This document shows positions 9,455-60,185 of a stretch of DNA of 64,000 bases, one piece after another. Made by a program: the position numbers and the translations under genes. The DNA is taken from positions 1,504,001 to 1,568,000 of the forward strand of contig CBDCTK010000002.1 of assembly GCA_965222225.1 (NCBI GenBank), in the 5' to 3' direction. This DNA comes from Candidatus Poribacteria bacterium. Its GTDB lineage: Bacteria; Poribacteria; WGA-4E; JAJDTR01. Under the pieces are notes generated by a model that did no database searches, had not been told where the DNA came from, and was given only the letters and a program-made list of their open reading frames with translations. Each line of letters starts with the position of its first letter. Position 1 is the first letter of the stretch.

Positions 9455-9570
9455 GAGGATCAAGCGATTGATTAGAGAGCGATCAACTGAGTGGATAACG
9501 AGGATCAAGGGAACGAACGGTGACCGCGATAGAGTTCCCATAGAAAATCCCATAATGACTGCGATAGAGC
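9455..9570 (+). repeat. Chained copies of the 30-nt GA-hairpin module
   Basis: Three chained GATCAA-hairpin units plus a partial one between ctaA and cyoE. Confidence 0.85.
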
Positions 9571-9607
9571 TTCCATAGGGAACGCAATAACCTGCGTTCA
9601 TTGAGGT

Positions 9608-10516
9608 ATGCGCATGATGTCAACAACTCAGACTCAAGACAATGACCTGTCCGAACTAAGCCGCCGAGTGTCAACTTTCGTGGAATTGACTAAGCCGCGA
9701 CTCGTAGCAATGATACTGATTACAACCTTCGCCGGCTTCTATCTCGCATCTTCGGATTCTCTCAATTGGCTTCAACTTGTTGAGGTGATTATCGGCACCG
9801 GGTTGTCGGCGGCAGGAGTGTTAGCTCTGAATCAATACCTCGAACGGGACCTAGATGCACAGATGGTAAGGACATGCAACCGTCCCTTGCCAGACAAGCG
9901 TGTCGAACCGACGACCGCGCTATTCTTTGGCGTGTTACTGACTGTTGGCGGCCTCGCATTTACGGCATTCTGCGTTAACTCGTTAAGCGCATTGGCCATC
10001 TCTGCTATCGTCGTGACCTATCTATTCGTCTATACGCCGCTCAAACAGAAGTCACCGCTCTGCACCATTGCCGGCGCGGTTCCGGGGGCATTGCCGCCCG
10101 TTATCGGCTGGGTCGCCGCACGAGGAACAATCAATATTGAAGCATGGACACTTTTCGCCATTCTTTTTCTCTGGCAGCTACCCCACTCCTTGTCGATTGC
10201 ATGCATCTACCGCGACGAATACGCGCAGGCGGGATTCCGATTGCTTCCGGTTGTTCACCCGGATGGCAAGAGCACGAGACGACAAATTGTGAGCAACTGT
10301 TTGGCTCTTCTTGTCGTAGCACTGCTGCCCACATTGGTCGGCATCGCGGGTATCCTTTACTTCTTCGCCGCGCTAGTCTTGAGCGTCTGCTTTCTTGCGT
10401 TCGGTATCAAGCTGTCAGTTTCTCCTACAACCGTATCTGCAAAACGGTTGCTATACGCCTCATTGATATATCTGCCGCTTGTATTTCTTGTAATGGCGCT
10501 TGATAAAACCGCGTGA
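9608..10516 (+). CDS. cyoE: Protoheme IX farnesyltransferase (heme O synthase)
   Basis: LTKPR, NQYLERDLDAQMVRTCNRPLP, YTPLK, GALPPVIGW, WQLPH. Confidence 0.97.
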   Translation: MRMMSTTQTQDNDLSELSRRVSTFVELTKPRLVAMILITTFAGFYLASSDSLNWLQLVEVIIGTGLSAAGVLALNQYLERDLDAQMVRTCNRPLPDKRVEPTTALFFGVLLTVGGLAFTAFCVNSLSALAISAIVVTYLFVYTPLKQKSPLCTIAGAVPGALPPVIGWVAARGTINIEAWTLFAILFLWQLPHSLSIACIYRDEYAQAGFRLLPVVHPDGKSTRRQIVSNCLALLVVALLPTLVGIAGILYFFAALVLSVCFLAFGIKLSVSPTTVSAKRLLYASLIYLPLVFLVMALDKTA

Positions 10517-10539
10517 TGAGATGAGGAATTTTAGCTCGG

Positions 10540-10650
10540 ATGAATGACCACAAAAAGCAGAGCCGAAACCGTCGCCTCGGGTTACTCCTATTTGCAATCT
10601 TTGTCACCCTATTTGTTGTCGCAACGATTATCGCGCTGGTGAAAAACTAA
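10540..10650 (+). CDS. 36-aa single-TM small protein (not in ORF track)
   Basis: MNDHKKQSRNRRLGLLLFAIFVTLFVVATIIALVKN*; upstream GAGGA; inside cox operon. Confidence 0.65.
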   Translation: MNDHKKQSRNRRLGLLLFAIFVTLFVVATIIALVKN

Positions 10651-10704
10651 AGTACAACAAGCAAATGAATACCATTCCCTTGGATACACTAGGCGTTAAT
10701 TCTG

Positions 10705-11310
10705 ATGACTGAAGCAGAACAAGCAACATACGAACATACCGCTGATACAGGTCAACTGATGAGCAATGCCCGTTTGGCTATACTGATACTTCTAGGCGCG
10801 GAAATCATGTTTTTCGCAGGCTTGATTGGGACATTCCTCGTGTTTCGATTGGGCAGTGTGACATGGCCGCCGCCCTCGCAGGCTGATGTGCGATTGCCGA
10901 TTGGCGTCACGGGGATTAATACGATTGTCCTGTTGTTAAGTGGTTATACCATGATTCGGGCGCTGCGGGTGGTGCGTAGGGACAGTCAGAAGGAACTTCG
11001 ACGCTGGCTACTCGTGACAGGTCTTCTCGGCGCAATTTTCCTTGTTGTACAAGGCTCCGAATGGGTTCGATTAGTGCATCACGGATTCACACTGTCGTCA
11101 GGTGTCTACGGTTCAATCTTTTATGTCCTCATCGGTTGCCATGCGCTGCACGTATTGGTTGCAGTCGTTTGGGAGTTGAGTGTTTTTGCCAAAGCGTTAG
11201 GCGGTGGCTTCTCGGCGGATCGCCACGTTGGCGTCGAAATCTGCACTATCTATTGGACATTTGTCGTGGGGTTGTGGCCCATACTATATGTAATGGTCTA
11301 TTTGGTCTAA
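10705..11310 (+). CDS. ctaE: Cytochrome c oxidase subunit III family protein (first copy)
   Basis: AEIMFFAGL, NTIVLLLSG, GCHALHV, YWTFV. Confidence 0.92.
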   Translation: MTEAEQATYEHTADTGQLMSNARLAILILLGAEIMFFAGLIGTFLVFRLGSVTWPPPSQADVRLPIGVTGINTIVLLLSGYTMIRALRVVRRDSQKELRRWLLVTGLLGAIFLVVQGSEWVRLVHHGFTLSSGVYGSIFYVLIGCHALHVLVAVVWELSVFAKALGGGFSADRHVGVEICTIYWTFVVGLWPILYVMVYLV

Positions 11311-19388: not shown

Positions 19389-19468
19389 CGTAGGGTGCGA
19401 ATCGTCGATTTCCCCTCTTGCTGCGATCAAACGAGAGGATAACGAGTGCGATAGAGATCCCACCATCC
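19389..19468 (+). repeat. GTAG REP with GA-hairpin module
   Basis: GTAGGGTGCG ... GATCAA AC GA GA GGATA AC GA GT GCGATAG AGATCCCACC. Confidence 0.8.
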
Positions 19469-20681: not shown

Positions 20682-20783
20682 TCTCATCATCGTTAGGGGA
20701 GGCATCTGTGCCTATCCTAACGGTGGCATGAGCAACGAATTCAAAAGCGAGAAAAACCTACATTTCAAAATGAAGATTTCTCA

Positions 20784-21002
20784 ATGACAGCACAACTCGA
20801 AAAAGACTTTGCGGAAGCCTCGAAACTTTCACCAAGCGAACAAGATGCCCTTGCAGAATGGCTGTTTGCCGAACTCCAATCTGAGAAACGGTGGACTAAA
20901 CAATTCGCTGATTCTCAAAATACAGTGCCCAAACTGGCTTCTGAAGCGCTCGCCGAACATCATAGTGGTCATACTCAAGAATTAGATCTCAATCGCCGAT
21001 GA
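20784..21002 (+). CDS. Small antitoxin-like protein, no intact toxin next to it
   Basis: LEKDFAEASKLSPSEQDALAEWL..ELQSEKRW...LASEALAEH pattern of addiction-module antidotes. Confidence 0.55.
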   Translation: MTAQLEKDFAEASKLSPSEQDALAEWLFAELQSEKRWTKQFADSQNTVPKLASEALAEHHSGHTQELDLNRR

Positions 21003-21080
21003 TATCAGATTGCGTTTCTCGCAATCACGTATCACGCAGAAGTTCCAAGCCACACATGTCTCAATTAAACGGAGGTCCTG

Positions 21081-23162: not shown

Positions 23163-23408
23163 GAACCTGTTTGAAAAGTACAGTTTGTAGGGTGCGATCA
23201 ACCGACTGATTAAGGAGGGCGATAGAAATCCCCTCAAGCGAGTGGATAGCGAGTGCGATAGCTATATGTAGGGTGCGCACTGCGCACCAGCCTTTGGGGT
23301 TGATTTCTTGTAGGGTGCGATCAACTGAGCGAATAGCGACTGCGATCAAGGGAATGGATAATGACCGCGATAGAATTCCCATAGAAATCCCGTGCGATAG
23401 AGATCCTA
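23163..23408 (+). repeat. REP/GA-hairpin mosaic starting with a left MITE end
   Basis: GAACCTGTTTGAAAA at 23163, GTAGGGTGCGCACTGCGCACC, four hairpin modules. Confidence 0.85.
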
Positions 23409-30037: not shown

Positions 30038-30277
30038 GAACCTGTTTGAAAAGTACATTTGTAGGATCAAGCGAGTGGATAACGAGCTATATGTAGGGTG
30101 CGCACTGCGCACCAGCCTTTGGGGTTGATTTCTTCTAGGATCAACTGAGCGAATAGCGAAGGCGATAGTAAATCTTGATAGAGATCCTACAGGTATGTAG
30201 CAGCCAACAATGAAAACATGAAAAAACTTTCTCAAATACCCAAAAATCGCTTTGTCACCTTTTTTTCAAACAGGCTC
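30038..30277. mobile_element. 240-bp MITE-like element with IS5-like ends carrying REP modules
   Basis: 15-bp TIRs GAACCTGTTTGAAAA (30038-30052) / TTTTCAAACAGGCTC (30263-30277), one mismatch; TAA on both sides. Confidence 0.8.
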
Positions 30278-31974: not shown

Positions 31975-32346
31975 TTTGTAGTGCATTTGTAGGGTGCGAT
32001 CAACCGACTGATTAAGGAGGGCGATAGCTATATGTAGGGTGCGCACTGCGCACCAGCCTTTGGGGTTGATTTCTTGTAGGGAGCGATCAAAGGAATGAAT
32101 AATGACTGCGATAGCTATATGTAGGGTGCGATCAAACGAGTGGATAACGAGTGCGATAGAAATCCCCTGCGCACCAGCCTTTGGGGTTGATTTCTTGTAC
32201 GGTGCAATCAAAGGAATGAATAATGACTGCGATAGAAAATCCTGATAGAAATCCTGACAGGTGTATAGCAGGCGACCACAAAAGCATGAAAAAGCCGCGC
32301 CCAAAGTGACCGGAATTGCTTTGCCACCTATTATTCAAACAGGCTC
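31975..32346 (+). repeat. REP/GA-hairpin mosaic ending in a right MITE end
   Basis: Four hairpin modules, GTAG REP, subterminal region similar to 30186-30277, ends TTCAAACAGGCTC. Confidence 0.85.
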
Positions 32347-34151: not shown

Positions 34152-34465
34152 TTGTAGGATCAACCGAGTGGATAACGAGGGCGATAGTCTTGTAGTGAGC
34201 TATATGTAGGGTGCGATCAAAGGAATGAATAATGACTGCGATAGAAATCCCCTGCGCACCAGCCTTTGGGGTTGATTTCTTGTAGGATCAACCGAGTGGA
34301 TAACGAGGGCGATAGTCTTGTAGTGAGCTATATGTAGGGTGCGATCAAAGGAATGAATAATGACTGCGATCAAGCGACCGGATAGGGAGCGCGATAGTCT
34401 TGTAGGGAGCGATCAAGCGAGTGGATAACGAGGGCGATAGTCTTGTAGTGTGGGATCAAGGGAGT
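34152..34465 (+). repeat. REP/GA-hairpin mosaic with internal duplication
   Basis: Six hairpin modules; 34152-34245 repeated at 34280-34370. Confidence 0.9.
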
Positions 34466-39517: not shown

Positions 39518-40002
39518 CCGTAGGGTGGGATCAAACGACCAGCTTCTTTCCGCGTTTCTGAACTATATGTAGGGATCAACTGAGTGGATAACGAAGGCGA
39601 TAGTCTTGTAGTGTGCGATCAAGGAAGCGAATAGCGACCGATCAAGGAAGCGAATAGCGACCGATCAAGGAAGCGAATAGCGACCGCGATAGAGATCTTC
39701 TAGGGAGCGATCAAAGGAATGAATAATGACTGCGATAGCTATATGTAGGGTGCGCACTGCGCACCAGCCTTTGGGGTTGATTTCTTGTAGCGATCAAGGG
39801 AATGGATAATGACCACGATAGAACTCCCATAGAAATCCCCTGCCCACCATTCCTTGCTACTTGCTTAACAGCGACTTAATCGTAGGATTGGCTATTATGG
39901 CTACACCAAGGAATCTACATTTCACTTACTCTGCGTCCGCTGAATTTCGTCCGAAAATCAGAAATGCGTTCGGAAATCATGGTGGGCAGTGCCCACCCTA
40001 CA
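39518..40002. repeat. REP/GA-hairpin mosaic with inverted REP
   Basis: Six hairpin modules incl. a triplication at 39617-39691; inverted GGTGGGCAGTGCCCACCCTAC near 39981-40001. Confidence 0.85.
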
Positions 40003-41078: not shown

Positions 41079-41520
41079 GGCGCCCACTATGTAGGGTGCG
41101 ATCAACCTATATGTAGGGTGCGCACTGCGCACCAGCCTTTTTTCATAGTCATCAACTTCACGACCCTCTTGTAGCGCGAAGCGCACGGACTAATATAAGG
41201 TGCGATCAACCTATATGTAGGGCGGGATCAAGCGAATGGATAATGAGCCGGATGGGCTATCGCGTTCGCTATTCACTCACTTGATCGATAGAACTCCCCC
41301 ATCCTTTTTTTACAATTGTTTGGTTTATCTGTAGGAGCGATCTCCGAATCGCGACTCTCCCGATCGCCTACCCACTCCGGAAGAGCGGCACGTCGATAGT
41401 TGTAGTTGTAGGGTGGGCACTGCCCACCATCCTTATGGTAATGGCTCCTAATGCAGTGCGGATGGAGATGGTGGGCGGTGGATCTCTATTGCAGTCATTA
41501 TCCATTCCTTTGATGGGTGC
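41074..41520. repeat. REP mosaic downstream of RAYT remnant
   Basis: GTAG REPs of three types and inverted hairpin doublet 41218-41286. Confidence 0.85.
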
Positions 41521-41569
41521 GTCCATTGTTGAATCAACATTGACAGGTTTGGTGTCACCTCCGCCACAA

Positions 41570-41914
41570 CTACTCTCCCACATTACTTTCGATGCGACTG
41601 AAATCGGGGATATGTGGATGGATATCATTACATGTACAACACCAATCCGCCGGATACCCTCCTCTTTTTACCCATTTATGAAAACTTGAGGGTGCCCACT
41701 GATGCGGACATTGAGCGTACCCGTGCCTCACAGGGTTATAATGGATGTAATCGAGATGGATCTGAAAATCCGCTTCGTCTCGAAGGGCATGTTCCCAAAA
41801 CCGACGTTGCCAAATGTTGCGCTCTCGGTGTTTTCGGCGGGAATTAGATTTGTCTTGTTCTAACCGGGGTGGTGGGAGAGATTTTGTGAATAGTGCTTTC
41901 AGCCTACCGACGCG
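41570..41914 (-). pseudogene. C-terminal half of a REP-associated tyrosine transposase (RAYT)
   Basis: GRLKALFTK, IWQRRFWEHALRDE.DF..HLDYIHYNPVRHG...W..SSF; N-terminal HUH half replaced by repeat DNA. Confidence 0.9.
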
Positions 41915-42792
41915 ACCCTCCCGATCGCCTACCCGCCCCGGAAGAGCGGCACGTCGATAGTTGTAGGGTGCGATCAACCTATATGTAGGGTGCGATCAAA
42001 GGAATGAATAATGACTGCGATTAACCTATATGTAGGGTGCGCACTGCGCACCAGCCTTTGGGGTTGATTCCACCATCCTTTGTAGGCGGAGCCTCTTGCT
42101 CCGCCGCTGCATTTGCCCAACCCGAATCGAAAGTCGCGATTCGCAGATGGAATGCACAAAGACTATCGCGCTCATTATCCATTCGCTTGATCGCACCAGC
42201 CTTTTCATAGTCATCAACTTCACGACCCACTTGGAGCGCGATAGAACTCTTACCATCCTTTTTACAATTGTTTTCTTTGGTTTATCAGTAGGAGCGATCT
42301 CCGAATCGCGACTCTCCCGATCGCCTACCCGCTCCGGAAGAGCAGCATGTCGATAGTTGTAGTTGTAGGGTGCGCACTGCGCCCCATCCTTTATACAATT
42401 GTTTTGTTTGGTTTATCTGTAGGAGCAATCTCCGAATCGCGACTCTCCCGATCGCCTACCCGCCCCGGAAGAGCGGCATGTCGATAGTTGTAGTTGTAGG
42501 GTGCGATTAACCTATATGTAGGGATCAACTGAGCGGATAGCGAAGGCGATAGTTCTTGTAGGGTGGGCACCGCTCACCCTCCTTTCTATGCAGAGCATCC
42601 TGCTCCGCCGCTGCATTTGCCCAACCCGAATCGAAAGTCGCGATTCGCAGATGGAATGCACAAAGACTATCGCGCTCATTATCCATTCGCTTGATCGCAC
42701 CAGCCTTTTCATTGTCATCAACTTCACGGCCCTCTTGGAGCGGCGACGCGCACGGGATTTACTATCGCGGTCGCTATCCGCTCCCTTGATCC
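41915..42792. repeat. Large REP mosaic upstream of RAYT remnant
   Basis: ~80-bp GTAGGAGCGATCTCCGAATCGCGAC module (41331, 42288, 42419, partial 41911), two composite units, five hairpin modules. Confidence 0.9.
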
Positions 42793-44747: not shown

Positions 44748-44886
44748 CGCGATCAACTGAGCGATCAACTGAGCGAATAGCGAAGGCGATAGTTCTTGTA
44801 GCGATAGAGATCTTCTAGCGAGGATCAAGCGAATGGCTAATGAGTGCGATAGTGAATCCTGATAGAAAGTCTTGATAGAGATCCCC
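44748..44886 (+). repeat. GA-hairpin mosaic
   Basis: Hairpin modules at 44763 and 44823 plus fragments. Confidence 0.85.
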
Positions 44887-46006: not shown

Positions 46007-46009
46007 TTG

Positions 46010-46305
46010 TCTTGTACGGTGCGATCAAAGGAATGAATAATGACCGATCAACCGAGTGAACAGCGAGGGCGATAGTCTTGTAGGATCAAGCGACCGATCA
46101 ACTGAGCGAATAGCGAAGGCGATAGAGATCTTCTAGGGAGCGCGATAGAACTCGTACCAGCCTTTGGGGTTGATTCCACCATCCATTGTAGGCGCGAATC
46201 CCCTTGCTCCGCCGCTGCATTTGCCCAACCCGAATCGAAAGCCGCGTTTCGCAGACGGAATCCACCAAGACTATCGCGCTCATTATCCATTCGCTTGATC
46301 CCCGC
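46010..46305. repeat. REP/GA-hairpin mosaic with composite unit
   Basis: Three forward modules, one reverse module 46271-46300. Confidence 0.85.
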
Positions 46306-46393: not shown

Positions 46394-46795
46394 GTGATTA
46401 CACCCCCACAAATCGCATTGGTAGTGACGAACCTCGTCGCAGTCGTGGGAATTGTCTATTACATGTCAACAGTCTTGGGCAAGCGGATAGATGCGCTCGA
46501 CAAGCGCATGGACGATTTGAATGTCAATATGAATGCCCGATTCAGCGATATGAATGCCCGGTTCAGCGATATGAATGCCCGGTTCAGCGATATGAATGTG
46601 CGATTCAATGAGTTAAGCCACCAAATAGACACCCGCATCGACGATATGAGCACAAATATTAATACCCGTTTTGACGACCTCCGCACCCAGATGAACCGCG
46701 AGCACGACGCCTTATCCAAAAAGGTCGACACCCTGACCCACACCGTCACCGACCACATCGCCGACCAATCAATTCACCAAGACCCACGAGTCTAA
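46394..46795 (+). CDS. Membrane-anchored coiled-coil protein, paralogue 1
   Basis: RBS AAGGAGG; N-terminal TM; MNARFSD heptads on 21-nt repeats; DDLR.QMNREHD...IHQ.PRV. Confidence 0.85.
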   Translation: MITPPQIALVVTNLVAVVGIVYYMSTVLGKRIDALDKRMDDLNVNMNARFSDMNARFSDMNARFSDMNVRFNELSHQIDTRIDDMSTNINTRFDDLRTQMNREHDALSKKVDTLTHTVTDHIADQSIHQDPRV

Positions 46796-46861: not shown

Positions 46862-47250
46862 TGTAGGATCAAGCGACCGAATAGGGAGCGCGATAGTTCT
46901 TGTAGGATCAAGCGAGTGGATAACGAGCGATCAAAGGAATGAATAATGACTGCGATAGCTATATGTAGCTATATGTAGGATCAAACGACCGAATAGGGAG
47001 CGATCAAAGGAATGAATAATGACTGCGATAGAAATCCCACCAGCCTTTGGGGTTGATTCCACCATCCATTGTAGGCAGAGCATCTTACTCCGCCGCTGCA
47101 TTTGCACACCCCGATCGAAAGCCGCGATTCGCAGACGGAATCCACCAAGACTATCGCGCTCATTATCCATTCGCTTGATCGCACCCTACATATGACTCCA
47201 CTACGTTCAACCGTTTTCTCCACTCACCACTCACCACTCACCACTGCTTT
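46862..47250. repeat. REP/GA-hairpin mosaic plus CCACTCA tract
   Basis: Five forward and one reverse module; heptamers at 47218-47246. Confidence 0.85.
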
Positions 47251-48322: not shown

Positions 48323-48810
48323 CGAGTGATCAAAGGAATGAATAATGACTGCGATAGCTATATGTAGCTATATGTAGGGTGGGCATTGCCCACCAGCCTT
48401 TTTCCCTATTGATATCCTGCCCCGCCGCTGCATTTGCACAACCCGCGTCGAAAGCCGCGATTCGCAGATGGAATCCACCAAGACTATCGCCTTCCCTATC
48501 CAGTCAGTTGATCCCACCAGCCTTTTTCCCTATTGATATCCTGCCCCGCCGCTGCATTTGCACAACCCGCGTCGAAAGCCGCGATTCGCAGACGGAATCC
48601 ACAAAGACTATCGCCTTCCCTATCCAGTCAGTTGATCCCACCAGCCTTTTTCCTTGTGCGGGCGAGGAGACCTCGCCCCTACGATGGATACGGTCACACA
48701 TGCGCATCCGTCGGGGTTAGCTATCGTCCTCGTTGTTCACTCGGTTGATCGATAGAGATCCCCTTGCTCCGCCCGAATGTTTGTCGCGACCTGGAGATCG
48801 CTCCTACAGG
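48305..48810. repeat. REP mosaic with two tandem 124-bp units
   Basis: CACCAGCC at 48391, 48515, 48639; inverted REP near 48785-48808. Confidence 0.9.
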
Positions 48811-48857
48811 CTGTCGAACCTCCGGCGCTTTTCCGCACAGACGGCTGTCTTTTCCGA

Positions 48858-48886
48858 TTGACATCAATGACACCGTCGGTTATAAT
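48858..48886 (+). promoter_or_regulatory. Perfect consensus sigma70 promoter
   Basis: TTGACA-17-TATAAT upstream of ATG 48957. Confidence 0.85.
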
Positions 48887-48956
48887 TCTCTGCCGCAAGC
48901 GCCCTGCGCCGCGCGCTCCGAACACGGCACGTACCACTATACGACGAGGCATATTC

Positions 48957-49463
48957 ATGGATTGGACACTCACCGCACAAATAGTAGCGATCGTGGCCAT
49001 ATACTTGGGCGGCATTTTAGGCATTGGACGCTTCGTGACGCAATCGCTAGGCAAGCGGATAGACGATCTGAAGTCAATGACAGAGTCCGACCATCTTGCC
49101 GTTGCCAGGATGATTCAAGGACTTGACAAGCGTATAGACGGTCTCGACAAGCGTATAGACGGTCTCGACAAGCGTATAGACGGTCTCGACAAGCGTATAG
49201 ACGGTCTCGACAAGCGGATAGGCGATCTTGGCTCCAACATGAATGAGCGCTTCGGCGATGTGAACAACCGAATCGGCGATCTTGACAAGCGGATAGACGA
49301 TCTTGGCTCCAACATGAACGCGCGGTTCAGCGAAATGAATGCGAACATAAATGCACGGGTCGACGACCTCCGATCACAAATGAACCGCGAACACGACAAC
49401 CTCTCCCAAAAAATCGACGCCCACATCACGAATCAAGAAATCCATCAGACCCCGCGAGTTTGA
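48957..49463 (+). CDS. Membrane-anchored coiled-coil protein, paralogue 2
   Basis: ATG 48957; TM; GLDKRID heptads on 21-nt repeats; shared C-terminus. Confidence 0.85.
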   Translation: MDWTLTAQIVAIVAIYLGGILGIGRFVTQSLGKRIDDLKSMTESDHLAVARMIQGLDKRIDGLDKRIDGLDKRIDGLDKRIDGLDKRIGDLGSNMNERFGDVNNRIGDLDKRIDDLGSNMNARFSEMNANINARVDDLRSQMNREHDNLSQKIDAHITNQEIHQTPRV

Positions 49464-49792: not shown

Positions 49793-50203
49793 GTGTCCTT
49801 GAAGGAACTCATACCGCTACTGGCACTCGTCGTTACGAATCTGGTTGCAGTGGCGGGAATTGTCTATTATATGGCATCCACGCTAGGCAAGCGAATAGGC
49901 GATCTTGATAAGCGAATAGACGGTCTTGACAAGCGTATAGACAGTCTTGATAAGCGAATAGACGGTCTTGACAAGCGAATAGACGATCTTGGCTCCAATA
50001 TGAATGAGCGCTTCAGCGATCTGAACGCGAATCTCAACGCGCGGTTCAGCGAAATCAATGCGAATATAAATGCCCGGGTCGACGACCTCCGGTCACAAAT
50101 GAACCGCGAACACGATAACCTCGCCCGAAAAGTCGACAGCCTGACCGACACTGTCACCGCCCACATCACGAATCAAGAAATCCACCAGCCCCCGCGAGTC
50201 TAA
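49793..50203 (+). CDS. Membrane-anchored coiled-coil protein, paralogue 3
   Basis: RBS AAGGAG, GTG start, TM, LDKRID heptads. Confidence 0.85.
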   Translation: MSLKELIPLLALVVTNLVAVAGIVYYMASTLGKRIGDLDKRIDGLDKRIDSLDKRIDGLDKRIDDLGSNMNERFSDLNANLNARFSEINANINARVDDLRSQMNREHDNLARKVDSLTDTVTAHITNQEIHQPPRV

Positions 50204-50375: not shown

Positions 50376-50852
50376 GTGTCCTTGAAGGAACTCATACCGC
50401 TACTGGCACTCGTCGTTACAAATCTGGTTGCAGTGGCGGGAATTGTCTATTATATGGCATCCGCGCTAGGCAAGCGAATAGACGATCTTGACAAGCGGAT
50501 AGACGATCTTGGCTCCAACATAAATGAGCGCTTCAGCGATGTGAACAATCGAATCGGCGATCTTGACAAGCGAATAGACGACCTTAGCTCCAACATGAAT
50601 GAGCGCTTCAGCGATGTGAACAACCGAATCGGCGATCTTGACAAGCGTATAGACGATCTTGGCTCCAACATGAATGAGCGCTTCAGCGATATGAACGCGA
50701 ATCTCAACGCGCGGTTCAGCGAAATCAATGCGAACATAAATGCGCGGGTCGACGACCTCCGATCACAGATGCACCGTGAACACGACAACCTCTCCCAAAA
50801 AATCGACGCCCACATCACGAATCAAGAAATCCATCAGACCCCGCGAGTTTGA
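50376..50852 (+). CDS. Membrane-anchored coiled-coil protein, paralogue 4
   Basis: Same N-terminus as paralogue 3, 25-aa repeats, C-terminus as paralogue 2. Confidence 0.85.
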   Translation: MSLKELIPLLALVVTNLVAVAGIVYYMASALGKRIDDLDKRIDDLGSNINERFSDVNNRIGDLDKRIDDLSSNMNERFSDVNNRIGDLDKRIDDLGSNMNERFSDMNANLNARFSEINANINARVDDLRSQMHREHDNLSQKIDAHITNQEIHQTPRV

Positions 50853-50867: not shown

Positions 50868-51730
50868 GGGTGCGATCAAGCGAGTGGATAACGAGCGATC
50901 AAGGAAGCGAATAGCGACCGCGATAGAGATCTTCTAGGGAGCGCGATAGAACTCTTACCAGCCTTTTTCCCTATTTTGATATCCTGCCCCGCCGCTGCAT
51001 TTGCCCAACCCGCGTCGAAAGTCGCGATTCGCAGATGGAATCCACCAAGACTATCGCCTTCCTTATCCAGTCAGTTGATCCCCCAGCCTTTTTCCTTATT
51101 GATAGCCTGCCCCGCCGCTGCATTTGCCCAACCCGCGTCGAAAGTCGCGATTCGCAGATGGAATCCACCAAGACTATCGCCTTCCCTATCCAGTCAGTTG
51201 ATCCCACCAGCCTTTTTCCCTATTGATATCCTGCCCCGCCGCTGCATTTACCCAACCCGAATCGAAAGCCGCGATTCGCAGATGGAATCCACAAAGACTA
51301 TCGCCTTCCCTATCCAGTCAGTCGATCCCACCAGCCTTTTCGGCCGCTTGCTCCACCACGTTGTAGGGTGCGCACTGCGCACCAGCCTTTGGGGTTGATT
51401 CCACCATCCTTTGTAGGCAGAGCATCTTGCTCCGCCGCTGCATTTGCACAACCCGCGTCGAAAGCCGCGATTCGCAGATGGAATCCACCAAGACCATCGC
51501 CTTCCCTATCCAGTCAGTTGATCCCACCAGCCTTTTTCCTTGCCCGACCTACGGGTATGGGTAGGAACTACAGGGACTAAATGCCGGTGGACGATGCGCA
51601 CCCTACATATGACTCCACTACGTTCAACCGTTTTCTCCACTCTCCACTCCCCACTCTCCACTGTCTTTCCCACTCCCCACTAGCCACTGTTTCTAACCAC
51701 TCTCCACTCCCCACTAGTCACTGTTTTTCC
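50868..51730. repeat. REP mosaic with three tandem 124-bp units, a fourth unit and CCACT heptamer tract
   Basis: CCAGCC at 50958, 51083, 51207, 51331; heptamers 51635-51725. Confidence 0.9.
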
Positions 51731-53239: not shown

Positions 53240-53557
53240 ACTCACAAGTTGTGGTCTTGATGCGTCACGACTGTATCCTTCGATCACGGCTTCATCATAA
53301 TCTAATACGCTCCAAACCGTGGAAAACCCCGCGGAAACCGGAGCAAATACAACTTCCCATTTTTCATGCAACATTCAGTGTGAGGGGTAGTCCCTCAAAC
53401 GAGGTTCCGCATCTTAAAGGAATCTTGTCGATTCTCTTTTATTTCGAAAGGAAAACTACCAATTATGGATAGTTCGATTCAGTCTTGTGAAACTCGCAAG
53501 AACGACAAACCCAAATTGAATGCTACAGCTAACACAAAACCCAGGAGGTATAATAAA

Positions 53558-56500
53558 ATGATGTGTAGCAATTGGAAAATTAGCGTATTCGGTATCGTCG
53601 CGCTCATGCTAGCCTTCGGGCTTGCCACGACCGATGCCTTGGCACAGACAGAATACAGTCCCGTAACGGTAGAAGTTACTGCCCGGTCCAGCGGGGACAG
53701 CCCTGTCATCATCAACGCTTTGAGAGCAGCCGATGTGGTGGACATTACGTTTGTAATTAACACAACAGCTATCGCTACGGCAGATCCCACCGGCACGATT
53801 ACCATCACGATTCCCTCCGGATGGTCCCGCGCGTTCATGACCAGCGATACGCTCGATACGCTAGAGCCGGCTCGGGATCAGCGGGCGGGCGCTATTATAG
53901 CATTCGACAGCGCCGATACTAACGCTGATGACGCTGATGACATTACGCTTGACGCCCGTGGCAATCGACTGATTGCCACTGTCAAAAAGGATGTAATCGG
54001 TAGTACAATTACCTGGCACTATCGCAACGTAAAGCTTCCGGCTAGCGCCAGCACCTACGCCTTCGGAGTGCATTCGACGATACACGGAGGCTTGCCTCGC
54101 CTCGATCCGAGCACTATCATCGGTGACGTGGTTAGTAGAACCGAGACGACGAAAGGCGATGGCCGTAACATCGTGCTTGCTGTCGGCTCGGTGGCGAACG
54201 GCATGGGAAAATTCGTGTTGACCAGTCCATCGTTTCCTAAGGGGAATGATAAGTACAAATCCGGCGAAGGTGAAACTTCAACATATAATTACGAAAAACA
54301 CAATCTGGTGTATGCAGGGCAGGCACTGGGGAATTTGGTGTTTACCTTCACCGCCGCCGGAACAATGTATAAGGGTTCCACAGTCACGCTCGTCCTGCCG
54401 GGCGGCACTCTCGCGGAAGGAACTACTGTCAATACCCTGCCAATATGGATTGACCCCGAGAAACCTTTGCGAAACGAGAACAATGACGGCGTAGCCGACC
54501 AGAACGAGGTGAGCGTGAGCGGAGCGGATATTGACGATGCCCTTACGACAGAGTCTACGGTGACAGCCAAACTTGGAGCCACCAGGCAAGCCGGTCATCC
54601 GATTAGGTTTACCGTCAAGAACGTAAAGGCGCCCAAAGTTGAAGGCATCACCCAGGTGACCGCAGCGTTTGTCGCCCAAATGAATTCGCTAGTAGCCGTG
54701 GACGGTGATGATGCCGGTACCGCCGCCAAAGTCGGAGATACGGTCTACTTCACCGTGTATGGGACACACGGAGACAACAGCCACAAGGTGGCAGTTGACG
54801 ACCTCTCCATGAGTCGAACAGGAGATGCCGAGGCCAACCTGATGTTGACATTCACCTCCGGGGGCGTGATGTTAGAAGGCTCCGTGGTCGAAATCATGGT
54901 GCCTGCCGGTTGGATGCCATCGCCCTACATCAACATAATAGGTGATACCAATCCCGCCGGACACGTGGCTGTAGAGAGCGACGGTGGCGCCCTCTCGATG
55001 GTTAAGGTCTCCAACCGGAGTATCATAATTACCCTCGCGAGCAAATTGGCTAAAGACAGTACGCTTACCGCCACCTATTACGCCGCCAAAGCCCCCAAGA
55101 CGCAGCGAAGCTATACCTTCTCTTCAAAGGCGAGTTCCCATAAACAGGCAACCCCGATGCCAATCACCAGCCCGACGATTAGCGTTATCACCGGGCACGG
55201 CAGCGGAACCATCGCCTTGAACCGAGGCGGCGCCGCCTTTGCGCGGGCGACGAGGAAAACCAACGTCGGCACGCTTACGTTCATCTATTCCCCTGCCGGG
55301 CTTATGCCGACGGGTTCGGTGATTCGAATTAGTTGGCCCAACAACTGGTCGGCGCCGCGAAACGACAACGCCGATGGCAGACACGACGAAGGCGAGATCC
55401 TGGTGTCCCCCGCCGACAAAGCGACGCTTGTGCTTACGCGAGGCACCGGTACCGACATGCACACGGCGAGCATAACCACCACGAAGACGCTGATGGCAAG
55501 TGACCGCATAACGGTCGCCTACCGCAACGTCATGGTTCCCGACGTGGACCCGCGTTCCGACGTGTTCGAGACGAGAGTGCTCTCGGGGACCGGGGATATT
55601 GCCCTCCCCGGCGCCAGGCTCGACTCCAGCCCGGTGGTCGGCATCGGGCAAGCCCCGGACGGCTCCGGAAGCATCATGGCGAGCATCAACGAAGCGGACG
55701 CCGGCTCGAAGGTTGACATGATCGACTTCACCTATACCGCGGGCGGATCGATGTCCATCGGCGCCCAGGTGCTGATTGTCGTACCGGAGGGCTGGTCGGT
55801 GCCGATACTTGAGAACAACGATGGCGTGACTGACACCGGCGAGACCACGGCGACAGGCGCGGGCGCGCCGGCACTCGCTATTAGCGGCAACATGTTGACC
55901 GTTACACTTGGCGCCCCCTTGAGCAGCGGCGAGCAGTTCAAGATTACCTACAAGAACGCCATGGCGCCGGGGGCGGGCGGCTCCTACATCTTCGGCGCGA
56001 AGTCAAGCGTGAGATCCGGCGGAACGCTTACGGCGCTTTCGCAGAGCCCGACCATCACCGTGTCCCAAGTGGCGTCCGGCTCTATTGCGCTGACATCAGC
56101 CAGCGGTCCGTTGACCTCCGCCGCTCCCGACGTGGACCTCGGAAACTTGGTGTTTACCTTCGCCGCAGGCACGCAGATGCAGCCCGGGGCGCAGGTGATA
56201 ATCACCATTCCTCTAGGTTGGACGCTCCCCTTTGTCGACAACGACGACGGCGTTGACACCGCCGGCGAGGTGTCGTTGACCGGCATGGCGGATCTCAGCG
56301 TGTCCGGAGGCGGCTCGCAACCCTGGAGGTTGAGCGCCACCGCGACCGGTACGCTGGAAGCCGGCAATACGCTGACATTTACCTACAAGACGGTGACCGC
56401 GCCTTCGGCGGAAGCCACCTACCTGTTCATGACGGAGGCGTCCATCAGCGCCGGCGCAACGACCCTCCCGCTTTCAGTTCAGCCGAAGGTGATTGTCCGA

Positions 56501-58948
56501 GCGTCGGTCGCCGCCATTGCCGCTCATGCCATGCCGACCAAGGTATTTGTTGGCGATGACATAGCTGTCACCGTCGACCTCTGGAGCGCCGCTGGCGAAC
56601 TCGCCAAGGCATTGGGCGATAGGGTTGTCATGCTGTCCAGTTCGTCTGAAACCGCCAGCTTTACCGATGCCGATGGGAATGCGATTACCTCAATCACCAT
56701 TGCGGACAACACCTCGTCGGCGTCTGCCACTTACGGTGATTCCACCGCTGGCATGGCAACGATAACCGCTACCTCCGGCGAAATGACCTCCTCCGTGGAT
56801 GTCGAGGTCAAGTCTACTATACGCGATCTGGTGGTCGATGTGCCGATCGCAAGGCAGGGTTCCACGTTTACGGTCTCTGCAACCGGTAAAGGCGGCGGGG
56901 GTACCGTGACGCTTCTGGATTCCGAGGGCGAAAAAGTGGGAACGAAGAAAGCACTTGATCCGATCGGCGACGTTGATCCCGATGGCGATCAGGAGTACTC
57001 CCGTTCCGTTACGCTGCCTGCGGTGCTTGAGGATGGCATGTATACCGTAAGCGTCGAAATTCAGGGGGATGTCAATAACGAGTTGACGGTTCAGGTGTTG
57101 AACGACCAGACGCCCCCGACCATCAGCGACGCCGATGCGTCTGAGGCAGTGGTTGTCAACGGCGATACACTCACTCTCTCCGCTGATGTCGCCATGAACG
57201 AATCGATGGTTGCCATTGCTTCGGTTATCGCGGATATCGGCGGGCTGGATTCCACGCAAACCACGGTGGCGTTGGACGAACTTTCGAGTTCGCCCGGCAA
57301 ATACTTCACCATCATCACGGTTGACGATGCCAATGAAGCGGAAGACGGTGAGTACACCATCACCATCACCGCGACCGATGCCATCGGCAACACGGGATCA
57401 GACACGGTCATGGTCACCTTGGAGAACGATCCGAGCGAGCTGAATTCTGCCGAGGTTACTCCGGCAAGCGGCAAGCCCGGCGAAACTATCTGGATTAAGG
57501 CGACCGGTTCCGAGGGCGGAAGCCCCGAAGCCACCGTCAATAATTCCGACAGCGGAATGATGATTGCTCAGGTGACGCTCGAAGAGGAAGAGGGTAACGC
57601 CGGAAATTACGTTGCCGGACTCATGATTGTTGAGGACGCGCACCCGGTCGGTGTCTACGATGTCACCGTAACCCTCGGTACGAAGATGATGACGCTTTCC
57701 GGCGCCTTGACAATCGTTCCTCCGGGATACGAGTTCACCCTCGATATTCCGGCAGGTCGCAGCATGATCCACATTCCGCTCGCCGTTGCTCAGGTGAACG
57801 GCGTGGACATGGAAATCAACACCGTCCGAGACGTGTTCAGTGCGTTGGGCGATGCTGTCGGCTTCATTACCACGCTTGCCGACGATGGCGTCACCTTTAA
57901 TAGTTACCTTGGTGACGACGCACCCGGCAGCGCCTTCGGCGATACGGCTATCGGTGACGATACCGGCCTGATTGTGAATATGACGTCCGCCATGACGCTT
58001 GCCCTCAAGGGCGATGCGCTAGGGAGCGGCGGGTCAGCCACGATGAACCTGCGCGCTGGGCTGAATCTCGTCGGCGTGCCGCTGCAAACCGGCATTTTGC
58101 CGACGCTCAGCGCTGCGATTAATCACCCGGTTTTCGCCGGGATCACGCACATTGTGATCATGGACGAAAACGGGCAATTCCAGAACGTCCTCGCAGGCAC
58201 CGCTACGGACGGCCCTCTCATGGGTGGCACGGGTTATTTTGTCATCGCGAGCGCGGCGTTAGCGTTGCCGGTATCTGGTGTTGCGTGGGAGAACGATGGC
58301 GGCAGCGGCAGCAGCGCTGCTCCGGTCGTACTCAACGCGTCAACAACCTCGGTACTGCATGTGCAGGGTAGACTGATTGACGAAGTCGGCATGATGTCGC
58401 TTGACGGTTTGAACGTCTCCTTCAAGAACCTGTCCAGCGGCACCGTTCTCGGCAGCACCGTCGCAACGGATGACTACAGCATGACCTTCGTGAAAATCGA
58501 TACGACCGCCGCGAAGGTTGGCGATATCCTTGAGATAAACGCCGACTCCGGGAATCCGCTGCTCGGTGTCCGTCCGGTACAGCATGTTGTGACCGCTGCG
58601 GATGTGCTCAACGGCAGTATCAGCCTGCCCGACCTCGTGTCCTACGAGATTCCGGCGCAGTCCGAACTGCTGGCTAACTATCCGAACCCGTTCAATCCTG
58701 AAACATGGATTCCGTACCGTCTAGCTGAAGACGCCAGTGTCTCCGTGACCATCTACGGAGCGTCCGGCAGCCTCGTCCGCACCATCGACGTTGGCTTCAC
58801 GCCGGCGGCTGTCTACGAAGGACGTTCGGACGCCATCTACTGGGATGGCCGGAACAACTTCGGTGAGCAGGTCTCTAGCGGTATCTACTTCTATCACCTG
58901 AACGCGGGCGACTTCTCAGCCACTCGCAAGATGGTAATCGTGAAGTAG
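53558..58948 (+). CDS. ~1800-aa secreted beta-rich repeat protein with C-terminal T9SS-type-A/FlgD-Ig-like sorting domain
   Basis: RBS AGGAGGT; signal peptide; repeated FT..A.G.M..G..V.I..P.GW..P..DN.DG...GE modules; NYPNPFNPETWIPY...YWDGRN..GE.VSSGIYFY...RKMVIVK. Confidence 0.9.
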   Translation: MMCSNWKISVFGIVALMLAFGLATTDALAQTEYSPVTVEVTARSSGDSPVIINALRAADVVDITFVINTTAIATADPTGTITITIPSGWSRAFMTSDTLDTLEPARDQRAGAIIAFDSADTNADDADDITLDARGNRLIATVKKDVIGSTITWHYRNVKLPASASTYAFGVHSTIHGGLPRLDPSTIIGDVVSRTETTKGDGRNIVLAVGSVANGMGKFVLTSPSFPKGNDKYKSGEGETSTYNYEKHNLVYAGQALGNLVFTFTAAGTMYKGSTVTLVLPGGTLAEGTTVNTLPIWIDPEKPLRNENNDGVADQNEVSVSGADIDDALTTESTVTAKLGATRQAGHPIRFTVKNVKAPKVEGITQVTAAFVAQMNSLVAVDGDDAGTAAKVGDTVYFTVYGTHGDNSHKVAVDDLSMSRTGDAEANLMLTFTSGGVMLEGSVVEIMVPAGWMPSPYINIIGDTNPAGHVAVESDGGALSMVKVSNRSIIITLASKLAKDSTLTATYYAAKAPKTQRSYTFSSKASSHKQATPMPITSPTISVITGHGSGTIALNRGGAAFARATRKTNVGTLTFIYSPAGLMPTGSVIRISWPNNWSAPRNDNADGRHDEGEILVSPADKATLVLTRGTGTDMHTASITTTKTLMASDRITVAYRNVMVPDVDPRSDVFETRVLSGTGDIALPGARLDSSPVVGIGQAPDGSGSIMASINEADAGSKVDMIDFTYTAGGSMSIGAQVLIVVPEGWSVPILENNDGVTDTGETTATGAGAPALAISGNMLTVTLGAPLSSGEQFKITYKNAMAPGAGGSYIFGAKSSVRSGGTLTALSQSPTITVSQVASGSIALTSASGPLTSAAPDVDLGNLVFTFAAGTQMQPGAQVIITIPLGWTLPFVDNDDGVDTAGEVSLTGMADLSVSGGGSQPWRLSATATGTLEAGNTLTFTYKTVTAPSAEATYLFMTEASISAGATTLPLSVQPKVIVRASVAAIAAHAMPTKVFVGDDIAVTVDLWSAAGELAKALGDRVVMLSSSSETASFTDADGNAITSITIADNTSSASATYGDSTAGMATITATSGEMTSSVDVEVKSTIRDLVVDVPIARQGSTFTVSATGKGGGGTVTLLDSEGEKVGTKKALDPIGDVDPDGDQEYSRSVTLPAVLEDGMYTVSVEIQGDVNNELTVQVLNDQTPPTISDADASEAVVVNGDTLTLSADVAMNESMVAIASVIADIGGLDSTQTTVALDELSSSPGKYFTIITVDDANEAEDGEYTITITATDAIGNTGSDTVMVTLENDPSELNSAEVTPASGKPGETIWIKATGSEGGSPEATVNNSDSGMMIAQVTLEEEEGNAGNYVAGLMIVEDAHPVGVYDVTVTLGTKMMTLSGALTIVPPGYEFTLDIPAGRSMIHIPLAVAQVNGVDMEINTVRDVFSALGDAVGFITTLADDGVTFNSYLGDDAPGSAFGDTAIGDDTGLIVNMTSAMTLALKGDALGSGGSATMNLRAGLNLVGVPLQTGILPTLSAAINHPVFAGITHIVIMDENGQFQNVLAGTATDGPLMGGTGYFVIASAALALPVSGVAWENDGGSGSSAAPVVLNASTTSVLHVQGRLIDEVGMMSLDGLNVSFKNLSSGTVLGSTVATDDYSMTFVKIDTTAAKVGDILEINADSGNPLLGVRPVQHVVTAADVLNGSISLPDLVSYEIPAQSELLANYPNPFNPETWIPYRLAEDASVSVTIYGASGSLVRTIDVGFTPAAVYEGRSDAIYWDGRNNFGEQVSSGIYFYHLNAGDFSATRKMVIVK

Positions 58949-58967
58949 GTCTAGCCTGTGCTAAACC

Positions 58968-59025
58968 AATTAGCTGCTAGGCGCTTGGCGAAAACATCGT
59001 TGTTGCGCTTAGCAGCTAATTTTTT
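58968..59025 (+). terminator. Intrinsic terminator
   Basis: 17-bp stem AATTAGCTGCTAGGCGC/GCGCTTAGCAGCTAATT, 20-nt loop, T run. Confidence 0.75.
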
Positions 59026-59119
59026 GTAGAGTCCCTGCTACTGCTCGGTCTGGATTGCCAAATCCAGACCGGTGCCAACTTTCTAACCTTCGAGCCTTCC
59101 GCCCTTGCTAATAATCAAA

Positions 59120-59148
59120 TTGAAATCAAATACAAACCGTGCTATAAT
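59120..59148 (+). promoter_or_regulatory. Sigma70 promoter with extended -10
   Basis: TTGAAA-17-TATAAT preceded by TGC. Confidence 0.7.
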
Positions 59149-59189
59149 AAATCCCAATCACCAAACTGTTTGTCGGGTGCACACTGCTT

Positions 59190-60185
59190 GTAGGGTGCGC
59201 ACTGCGCACCAGCCTTTTTCCTTATTGCGCATTCCTTATGCCGCAACAAAAATCACTGCCTCATAACACCATAACTCATCTTCAACTGTGTTTATCTTCT
59301 CTTGGGCGGGTACACACAATCGCGCATCTCAATGTAGGGTGGGCACCGCCCACCAGCCTTTTTCCCTATGGCGCATTTCCTTATGCCTCAACAAACATCA
59401 CTGCCTCATAACATCATAAACGTTGACACCTCGTGTTTATCTTCTTTATGGATACAATTTCAACAATCACCTGTCTTAATGATGGCGGTTACACAATCCC
59501 GCATCTCAATGTAGGGTGGGCACTGCCCACCAGCCTTTTTCCTTATGGCGCATTCCTTATGGCGCAACAAACATCACTGCCTCATAACATCATAAACGTT
59601 GACACATCGTGTTTATCTTCTTTATGGATACAATTTCAACAATCACCTGTCTTAATGATGGCGGTTACACAATCCCGCATCTCAATGTAGGGTGGGCACC
59701 GCCCACCAGCCTTTTTCCTTATGGCGCATTCCTTATGGCGCAACAAACATCACTGCCTCATAACATCATAAACGTTGACACATCGTGTTTATCTTCTTTT
59801 GGATACAATTTCGACAATCACTTGTCTTTACGATAGCGGTTACACAATCCCGCATCTCAATGTAGGGTGGGCACCGCCCACCAGCCTTTTTCCTTATGCC
59901 TCTACAAACATCACTGCCTCATAACATCATAAACGTTGACACATCGTGTTTTTTTTCTTTTGGATACAATTTCAACAATCACCTGTCTTAATGATGGCGG
60001 GATCAAGCGACCGAATAGGGAGTGCGATAGCCGTTTTGTCGAATCATCGGTTCCGACGGCCTCATAACATCATAAATCTTCACACCTCGTGTTTATCTTC
60101 TTTACTTTCAGCTTATGTTTGTTTTTTGTCTATGTTTTAGGACTTTAAATTGGCTTTGTAGGGTGCGCACCGCGCACCAGCCTTT
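59190..60185 (+). repeat. Tandem array of ~176-bp REP-headed units
   Basis: GTAG REPs at 59190, 59334, 59511, 59687, 59862, 60158; near-identical unit bodies. Confidence 0.95.

Follow-up and report, generated by a model that had tools for sequence, protein, structure and literature searches.

Results

A hairpin module present in hundreds of copies

A 64,000-nucleotide (nt) stretch of a Candidatus Poribacteria genome (GenBank assembly GCA_965222225.1, contig CBDCTK010000002.1, positions 1,504,001 to 1,568,000 of the forward strand; hereafter the window, numbered from its first letter) contains many copies of a short hairpin module, GATCAA-XX-GA-YY-GRWYA-ZZ-GA-WW-GCGAT, in which XX and WW form the outer stem pairs and YY and ZZ the inner ones. 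Our data indicate that this module probably forms the central part of a mobile mini-element, non-autonomous and specific to this lineage, that measures about 34–37 nt and reads ATCAA-XX-GA-YY-G(RWY)A-ZZ-GA-WW-GCGATAGARATCC. The unit is best described as an extreme mini-element of the repetitive extragenic palindrome (REP) kind, which is shape-coded, colonises other REPs, and has a replication-linked strand bias of unexplained polarity.

The window was searched with the pattern GATCAA-N2-GA-N9-GA-N2-GCGAT, allowing at most 2 mismatches in the 15 fixed positions. This resulted in 48 matches with 30 distinct sequences, compared to 0.23 matches expected from 100 shuffles, and all of the copies sit in spacers between open reading frames (ORFs). 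The preliminary description of this DNA had counted about 55 copies, and the difference is explained by truncated and partial copies such as those at 9459–9502 and 39618–39662. The stem combinations that it had named at 23196, 23344, 30139, 32085, 32130, 34368 and 41259–41286 (minus strand) were all found to be correct, and the true mismatches that it had reported at 19425 (inner A.A), 23319 (outer C.T/T.C) and 34411 (outer G.G) are all present.

In the source genome (5.70 Mb in two contigs), the exact skeleton occurs 687 times as 289 distinct variants, the commonest of which (AG/CT + AT/AT) accounts for 48 copies. When copies were grouped by the number of mismatches in 17 fixed positions, 665, 273, 142 and 112 copies had 0, 1, 2 and 3 mismatches, respectively (approximately 1190 with the decayed copies included), while a reversed-pattern control gave 0, 0, 0 and 6 matches. 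With the two GA dinucleotides left free, 774 copies of GATCAA-N17-GCGAT were found, compared to 5–34 at other spacings. Most copies are extragenic (737 of 918 lie outside the calls of a simple home-made ORF caller), and the module is, as REPs are, a short imperfect extragenic palindrome with more than 100 copies per genome. The terminal GTAG found in over 90% of the members of REP families is not a constant part of it. GTAG occurs within 20 nt upstream in 261 of the 918 copies (28%), at varying distances, compared to 3.7% of random 20-mers; the earlier statement that the module usually follows GTAG is thus upheld as an enrichment, but it applies to a minority of copies.

In terms of arrangement, copies do chain through GCGAT, although seldom (5 pairs at a start-to-start distance of 25). 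Inverted doublets, which had also been described, do occur, but they make up only 66 of the 281 neighbour pairs within 300 nt and have no fixed spacing; the other 215 pairs are direct. Neighbouring modules in arrays rarely carry the same stems, with identical stems in 1 of 48 and 0 of 66 pairs. Short-read contigs of two DNA-type and two RNA runs, compared over 29900–35000, end at the repeat-rich spacers, where the word depth reaches thousands and the listed joints have sides shorter than 31 nt.

All 10 genomes of the source genus contain 381–1018 exact module copies, and one genus in the sister family has 127–154 copies in 4 of 4 genomes, with a narrower stem repertoire, a different tail and a different host REP. 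One further genome of the phylum has 16 copies and seven have 1–4, while no module copies were found in 154 of the 176 phylum genomes searched, and high copy number is confined to two genera. A collection of viral contigs gave 2 exact matches, which by our own estimate is the chance level. The comparison with described families that the preliminary description had proposed gave no Rfam match at the gathering score over the window and none at E<=1 over 31900–34700. Full-text searches for published work joining Poribacteria and REPs returned nothing relevant and no published REP description in Poribacteria.

Four covarying pairs and a conserved set of mismatches

The four stem pairs are canonical in 91–94% of the 289 unique cores, compared to 49–81% after shuffling of the columns, and none of 1000 shuffles was as high. 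Within the window, 96.7% of the 120 cells from the 30 distinct sequences are standard pairs, compared to 56.8% when shuffled (0 of 500 shuffles as high) and 19–55% in slid controls, and all four pairs change on both sides. The paired covariation that had been claimed for the window therefore stands and holds genome-wide. The mutual information is 0.46–1.26 bits in the four pairs, 0.02 between adjacent stem columns and at most 0.28 elsewhere, and a scan of all column pairs returned the four stem pairs as the four highest values. The four pairs vary almost independently of one another, and in the same all-column scan no covariation of the flanks or the tail with the stems, in the style of a guide and its target, stands out. 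RNAalifold recovers the same helix unaided, extended by an invariant base of 3 bp (ATC/GAT) and an internal loop of AA opposite GC. The preliminary description had allowed that the covariation might vanish once duplicated lineages were collapsed; it is seen in the unique cores, and 677 of the 687 copies have unique 20+25-nt flanks and are therefore not segmental duplicates.

The bases that do not pair are conserved as well. As had been proposed, the tandem GA persists without the search imposing it: GA/GA is present in 687 of the 774 copies (89%), and none of the eight commonest combinations among these copies replaces it with Watson-Crick pairs. The AA (97–99% conserved) and the GC (95–98%) lie opposite each other, forming a nearly invariant AA/GC mismatch that adjoins the GAT/ATC stem, and the G...A closure of the loop is nearly invariant. 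Conserved unpaired bases in the stem, a feature of REPs, are thus present in the module, and by analogy they may be needed by an enzyme. Some letters are never seen. T is missing from stem column 1, neither GA is directly preceded by A or directly followed by T, and the last column of the 5′ arm contains no purine. A thermodynamic cause of the letter rule around GA was considered and rejected, since model-hairpin energies from the Turner 2004 and Mathews 2004 parameters miss the preference C > T > G > A.

The GA strand is the strand under selection

Among the non-Watson-Crick cells of the unique cores, G.T/T.G pairs number 150 and A.C/C.A pairs 25, a ratio of approximately 6:1. On the complementary strand the G.T cells would be A.C mismatches and GA/GA would be TC/TC, and the excess of G.T over A.C therefore marks the GA strand as the strand under selection. 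The proposal that the family is selected on the single-strand fold of the GA strand is borne out by this excess together with the covariation and the observation that GA/GA is never made Watson-Crick. With RNA parameters, the top strand has a mean folding energy of −4.0 kcal/mol and the bottom strand −1.5 kcal/mol; the top strand is the more stable in 656 of the 687 copies, and 578 fold as proposed.

These values raise the question of whether the fold is selected as RNA, in the form of a transcribed hairpin that is bound by protein or decides the fate of an mRNA, or through mobility by an RNA intermediate. The classic motifs of RNA include tandem sheared G.A pairs as well as G-N-R-N-A loops, and mobilisation through an RNA intermediate has reportedly been proposed for the small dispersed repeats of Nostoc. 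In addition, RNA parameters fold 578 copies as proposed compared to 70 with DNA parameters, and G.U is tolerated while A.C is not. Di Nocera et al. likewise took the G.T pairing of REPs as a hint of RNA function, in a passage of PMC3733652. However, G.T wobbles are tolerated in DNA hairpins too, orthologous loci are empty or decayed in congeners, and no Rfam match was found over 31900–34700 even at E<=1. Module orientation also shows no bias relative to flanking genes, with 253 sense and 226 antisense copies in co-directional spacers and 163 sense-only compared to 151 antisense-only intergenic regions. An orientation that is indifferent to genes and tracks the GC skew argues for a process at the DNA level, and selection as RNA is considered unlikely.

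Module orientation runs in long domains (153 runs compared to 240 expected) and is anticorrelated with the coding-balanced GC skew in 100-kb bins, with a Spearman coefficient of −0.53 to −0.56. The GA strand lies on the C-rich strand in 333 of 482 clusters (69%), and none of 2000 circular shifts was as extreme. This bias is 69% in intact copies and 59–63% in decayed ones, and the GTAG REP heads have the same strand bias (73%). The gene dnaA lies at 2.61 Mb, beside the minimum of the cumulative skew at 2.54 Mb, so the usual polarity seems to hold, which would make the GA strand the lagging-strand sequence. The GC skew of the 5.6-Mb contig changes sign about six times, not twice, which suggests large inversions or an assembly issue. 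A simple reading of the skew as two replichores is ruled out by these sign changes, and orientation was therefore correlated with the local skew instead.

The unit inserts at fixed sites in other repeats

To compare empty and filled sites, the flanks of module copies were joined, the joined form was sought genome-wide, and the sites were then counted by explicit patterns. Four host families were found, in each of which the insert of 33–37 nt occupies one fixed site: the loop of GTAGGAGCGATCTCCGAATCG (45 empty and 3 filled, with 3 distinct inserted cores), the 3′ arm of the GTAG REP (72 and 5, with 5 cores), the 5′ arm of the GTAG REP (160 and 22, with 12 cores), and the CCCC-hairpin REP (9 and 1, with 1 core). 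The presence of different hairpin cores among the inserts means that these are independent insertions. The insert consists of ATCAA, the hairpin, GCGAT and then the tail AGARATCC(C). The left junction follows G-[C/G]-G, with an ambiguity of 0–2 nt, and no consistent target duplication was found at the junctions of the four families; a short specific target without duplication is also the habit of IS200/IS605-like elements. The repeat GTAGGAGCGATCTCCGAATCGCGACTCTCCCGATCGCCTAC, which occurs three times within 41285–42500 and in approximately 45–95 copies genome-wide, is one host of the unit.

Comparison with congeners whose genes are 76–90% identical showed that the sites differ between species. 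The spacer at 31941–32364 is 424 nt long here, 62–63 nt in three congeners and 258 nt in one, while in another congener it measures 1397 nt and its modules are oppositely oriented. Other orthologous spacers behave alike; overall, the lengths are 47–63 nt in some congeners compared to 258–1397 nt in others, where the spacers are filled with repeats in the opposite orientation. Beside one Y1 gene, three species carry an insertion that three others lack. Since orthologous intergenic sites are empty in some congeners, the unit has been mobile recently, and it is gained and lost on the time scale of species divergence.

A different explanation is that the module is not independently mobile. It could be an apical extension of the GTAG REP that spreads within mosaics similar to bacterial interspersed mosaic elements (BIMEs), by means of a REP-associated tyrosine transposase (RAYT) that cleaves loosely, and the isolated 35-nt units would then be by-products of excision or strand transfer. 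Passages of PMC3333891 on the E. coli enzyme TnpA-REP describe loose cutting that can create BIME variants and tandem copies. The flanking REP of the window-type RAYT does carry modules in its apex, GTAG is enriched upstream, the GTAG REP heads share the strand bias, and tandem composite arrays are present at 48400–48640 and 50950–51520 and in the genome G001. However, GTAG is absent from the vicinity of 72% of the copies, the unit occupies a fixed site in four unrelated host repeats with cores that differ by copy, and neighbouring modules almost never share stems. The second genus, moreover, has the module in a different REP and with a different tail. Independent mobility is preferred on these grounds, and we assign the apical extension a low but appreciable likelihood.

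Stem diversity and decay

The fraction of copies with all four pairs intact falls from 88% to 80, 55 and 38% at 0, 1, 2 and 3 mismatches in the 17 fixed positions. Over the same range the A.C/C.A cells rise from 0.9% to 9.2%, and G.U stays constant at 10–14%. Pairing thus decays along with the fixed letters, which indicates that intact copies were filtered for the top-strand fold and that old copies decay neutrally. Selection acts on propagation and not on each locus.

This pattern bears on the idea that the host keeps the copies as structural or regulatory sites (for nucleoid proteins, as terminators or as insulators), with purifying selection at each locus. Such roles are described for REPs and BIMEs in E. 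coli, and the module is extragenic, has a conserved fold and is present in many copies in all species of the genus. Nevertheless, orthologous sites are empty in sister species or were filled independently in the opposite orientation, the stems and the fixed positions decay together, no position or orientation relative to genes is preferred, and 154 of the 176 phylum genomes lack the module. Maintenance of the copies as host sites is accordingly improbable.

The variants of the stem are connected by single steps. Linking variants at a Hamming distance of 1 places 213 of 289, which account for 527 of the 687 copies, in a single component with a diameter of 23; of the edges in this network, 221 are transitions and 99 are transversions. 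The network and the amplified haplotypes fit a history in which stems are inherited when a copy is made and then drift neutrally for a long time, constrained by shape. The preliminary description had suggested an active mechanism that diversifies the stems pairwise, such as hairpin-templated repair or a programmed diversifier, and it is true that the four pairs are near linkage equilibrium and that there is no master sequence. Hairpin-templated correction would, however, remove GA/GA and AA/GC as well, and these mismatches are 89–99% conserved. The links by single substitution, the excess of transitions and the abundant G.T intermediates speak against rewriting as well, and the amplification of haplotypes (48 copies of one core) shows that stems are inherited on copying. 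An active mechanism is not needed, and we give it hardly any weight.

Y1 genes and the module

The window contains the remnant of a RAYT whose N-terminal part has been overwritten by repeats and which is bracketed by two inverted modules with identical stems. Of 9 congeners, 4 have an intact orthologue (identity above 60%), and the conserved flanks of these genes are a different, classical hairpin, GTAGGGTGCGCACYGCGCACCAGCC, in the apex of some of which the module is found. The module had been taken as the likely substrate of the window RAYT; this was not supported as put, the module being merely inserted in some of the repeats that flank the orthologues. The other Y1 genes present the same picture. 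The best Pfam Y1_Tnp match of the source genome is flanked by the CCCC-hairpin REP, and three further Y1 types are flanked by GTAGGGGACGCAGATCTGCGTCCCCTAC, GTAGGTTGGGTTGAACG-like and GTAGTAGGCATAC-like repeats. Across species, modules near Y1 types are insertions, and the conserved Y1 flanks are other hairpins.

Among 4552 ORFs, 22 are bracketed by inverted modules, and 2 of these are Y1 genes (the window RAYT remnant and one other); this enrichment may reflect only the landing of the module in REPs. Neither of two Y1 types searched tracks the module across 61 relatives. One system stands apart: a 157-amino-acid (aa) IS200-like Y1 protein (C2:3080258–3080728 in the source genome) is 67–91% identical across many Poribacteria, and in every case inverted AAGCCCCAGAGGGGCGACAGGTGTATAG-type hairpins, frequently as tandem copies, flank its gene and form a separate REP system. 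The link between the module and a RAYT is unproven.

Discussion

The unit inserts just after G-[C/G]-G, its targets including other REP hairpins and its own GCGATAG end, and insertion into the latter explains the chains. Intact copies retain a single fold of the GA strand, which consists of the 3-bp ATC/GAT base, the AA/GC mismatch, two free pairs, the tandem G.A, two more free pairs and the G...A-closed loop. In the mechanism that we propose, a copy could be recopied only if it preserved this shape together with the few fixed letters, while its four free pairs would drift one substitution at a time, with G.T pairs as intermediates, across a large neutral network, and this drift would account for the lack of a master sequence. 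The shape would most likely be read by a trans-acting HUH Y1 enzyme of the RAYT type acting on single-stranded DNA (ssDNA) at the replication fork, as suggested by E. coli TnpA-REP.

A number of observations weigh against this account. With DNA nearest-neighbour parameters the hairpin is marginal, with a mean of −0.9 kcal/mol and 70 of 687 copies folding as proposed. These DNA tables are not known to hold special terms for sheared G.A pairs. The gene orientations used for the sense and antisense counts come from the home-made ORF caller, and the insertion junctions vary by 1–2 nt, with one host site losing 2 nt, so that the cut sites are undefined. The GA strand is the lagging-strand sequence and not the template, a polarity opposite to that of IS608-type elements. 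Only 28% of the module copies have a GTAG in the 20 nt upstream. In terms of the candidate enzymes, the window-type RAYT is truncated here, has no match in congeners G006 and G008 (which have 381 and 692 module copies), and was not found in 2 of the 4 genomes of the second module-bearing genus; the 157-aa Y1 type is common in genera without the module. No Y1 or RAYT gene is consistently flanked by the module, and each Y1 type has its own, different REP.

A bolder interpretation treats the unit as a free-standing hyperparasite of REPs that ranks among the smallest site-specific mobile DNAs. It would have a near-pure shape code outside Watson-Crick pairing (the AA/GC bubble, the tandem G.A and the G...A-closed loop), and its movement would be coupled to replication in such a way that the folding strand ends up on the nascent lagging strand, through an enzyme other than the RAYTs of the invaded REPs or through a novel RAYT activity. 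This interpretation is offered as speculative, with a modest chance of being right.

If the proposed mechanism is correct, the family amounts to a natural mutational scan of the tolerance of a hairpin-reading enzyme, in which a single genome supplies 289 variants of a 28-nt fold that work and hundreds that have decayed, with similar variant sets in nine congeners, and the letters read as sequence and those read as shape become directly testable. A unit of approximately 35 nt that can act as a site-specific mobile element and colonise REPs would bear on the origin of BIME-like mosaics and on how small a mobile DNA can be. The element also reshapes the intergenic regions of uncultured sponge symbionts, where the same locus ranges from 47 nt to 1.4 kb between sister species, and it breaks short-read assemblies at its sites.

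Other features of the window

The module copies and related features of the window are listed in Table 1. Tandem arrays of a unit of approximately 123 nt, at 48400–48640 and 50950–51520, combine a minus-strand module with a second hairpin (CGAATCG...CGATTCG) and lie between small coiled-coil genes. Four paralogous small coiled-coil ORFs are located among the repeat arrays (46394–46795, 48777–49463, 49793–50203 and 50376–50852), and they have weak HSBP1-like Pfam matches. Tandem heptamers (CCACTAA, CCACTCA, CCACTAG) are found directly 5′ of start codons at 34610–34650, 44995–45025, 47220–47250 and 51630–51730, and the orthologous spacers of congeners also contain tandem heptamers; genome-wide, the CCACT strand lies on the C-rich strand in 57 of 75 heptamer pairs.

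The spacer at 20682–21080 contains a short ORF-like stretch. In two congeners this stretch is part of an 811-nt insert, in which two small genes are apparent by eye that may form a toxin-antitoxin-like pair, and three others have 93–182 nt at this place. The ORF at 53465–58948 encodes 1827 aa with immunoglobulin-like domains, a weak C-terminal match to a sorting domain, and a match to DUF2808, a domain that is unusual outside cyanobacteria.

Table 1. Module copies, host repeats and the transposase remnant in the window; stems are written as outer + inner pairs.
Feature	Position	Strand	Basis
Module, GG/CC + AC/GT	9503..9530	+	pattern search
Module, AC/GT + GA/AC (inner A.A mismatch)	19425..19452	+	pattern search
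Module, CC/GG + CT/AG, directly 3′ of GTAGGGTGC	23196..23223	+	pattern search
Module, GC/GT + GT/GC, degenerate 5′ flank	23232..23259	+	pattern search
Classical GTAG REP hairpin GTAGGGTGCGCACTGCGCACCAGCC, no insert (empty host repeat)	23268..23292	+	
Module, CT/CT (outer stem mismatched) + GC/GC, GCGAT-chained to copy at 23344	23319..23346	+	
Module, GG/CC + AT/AT	23344..23371	+	
Module, CT/AG + GC/GC	30139..30166	+	
Module, CC/GG + CT/AG	31998..32025	+	
Module, AG/CT + AT/AT (commonest genomic variant)	32085..32112	+	
Filled GTAG REP hairpin, unit in apex: module 32130–32157, AC/GT + GT/AC, tail AGAAATCCC	32121..32179	+	
Module, AG/CT + AT/AT	32206..32233	+	
Module, CC/GG + GT/AC	34158..34185	+	
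Module, AG/CT + AT/AT	34215..34242	+	
Module, CC/GG + GT/AC	34286..34313	+	
Two chained modules sharing GAT: AG/CT + AT/AT; GC/GC + CC/GG (34368)	34343..34395	+	
Module, GC/GG (G.G mismatch) + GT/AC	34411..34438	+	
Module, CT/AG + GT/AC	39574..39601	+	
Three tandem 23-nt partial copies, then full copy GG/CC + GC/GC (first GA = AA)	39617..39690	+	
Module, AG/CT + AT/AT	39709..39736	+	
Module, GG/CC + AT/AT	39792..39819	+	
Module, GC/GC + AT/AT, tail-to-tail with copy at 41259	41226..41253	+	
Module, GT/AC + GT/GC	41259..41286	-	
Module, AG/CT + AT/AT, 55 nt from RAYT remnant	41488..41515	-	
Truncated RAYT (Y1 HUH transposase), C-terminal half only, YIHYNPV tyrosine motif	41570..41995	-	
Module	41994..42021	+	pattern search
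Module, GC/GC + AT/AT	42165..42192	-	
Module, CT/AG + GC/GC	42523..42550	+	
Module, GC/GC + AT/AT	42669..42696	-	
Module, GG/CC + GC/GC	42764..42791	-	
Module, CT/AG + GC/GC, 12-nt partial duplicate before	44763..44790	+	
Module, GC/GT + AT/AT	44823..44850	+	
Module, CC/GG + GT/GC	46046..46073	+	
Module, CT/AG + GC/GC	46096..46123	+	
Module, GC/GC + AT/AT	46273..46300	-	
Module, GC/GC + CC/GG	46867..46894	+	
Module, AG/CT + AT/AT	46929..46956	+	
Module, AG/CT + AT/AT	47002..47029	+	
Module, GC/GC + AT/AT	47153..47180	-	
Module, AG/CT + AT/AT	48328..48355	+	
Three modules (48486, 48610: CT/AG + CT/GG, in ~123-nt tandem unit; 48723: CC/GG + GT/AC)	48486..48750	-	
Module, GG/CC + GC/GC	50897..50924	+	
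Four modules (51053, 51176, 51300, 51496; outer CT/AG) in ~123-nt tandem array	51053..51523	-	
Module, GC/GT + CC/GG	60001..60028	+	

Comparison with known systems

The attC sites of integrons are read as folded ssDNA, and structure and a few unpaired bases outweigh sequence in their recognition; they belong to gene cassettes, and they are an analogy only, since the enzyme class and the architecture are unrelated. The small dispersed repeats (SDRs) of Nostoc punctiforme, which Elhai et al. are said to have reported in 2008, reportedly are dispersed elements of 21–27 nt that insert into each other and into other repeats, have a secondary structure with compensatory changes, and occur among heptamer repeats. 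The source genome also has heptamer repeats; the phylum, the sequence and the size differ.

Like the IS200/IS605 elements IS608 and ISDra2, as treated in passages of PMC3333891, the unit inserts beside a short specific sequence without consistent target duplication, has a hairpin that would be recognised on one strand, and has an orientation linked to the direction of replication. Unlike them, the module is one hairpin without a transposase gene, and its folding strand lies on the lagging-strand sequence and not on the template. With REPINs, which are inverted REP doublets with a defined spacer and a single-copy, vertically inherited RAYT, the module shares a within-genome population of non-autonomous replicating elements with compensatory changes in the hairpin; such changes are described as common in REPIN hairpins (Bertels and Rainey 2011, PMC3116915). 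However, 215 of 281 module pairs are direct, the distances of the inverted pairs are scattered and their cores never identical, and no vertically inherited RAYT among the two Y1 types searched across relatives co-occurs with the module.

GTAG REP families are closer. Passages of PMC3733652 describe stems in these families that vary by complementary changes and allow G.T pairs, and even mention a GA that is conserved and unpaired. Covarying stems and required stem mismatches are already known for REPs (PMC3733652 and PMC3333891). As in REPtron systems, the modules form mosaic and tandem arrays, and RAYT genes are found among the repeats. The module differs from the GTAG REPs in that GTAG is near only 28% of its copies, it is not the consistent flanking repeat of any RAYT, its helix has four free Watson-Crick pairs interrupted by the conserved tandem G.A, it has no master sequence (289 variants in 687 copies), and the unit itself is inserted in other REPs.

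The best mechanistic precedent is E. coli TnpA-REP. According to passages of PMC3333891, this enzyme acts on ssDNA only and needs GTAG and a two-base mismatch in the stem, so that a perfect REP stem abolishes both binding and cleavage, and it cuts at loosely defined sites. The E. coli REPs are, like the module, short imperfect extragenic palindromes in hundreds of copies with complementary stem changes and G.T pairs. Their two-base mismatch is given as AA/GC in a passage of PMC3733652, and the module keeps the same AA opposite GC, adjoining the GAT/ATC stem.

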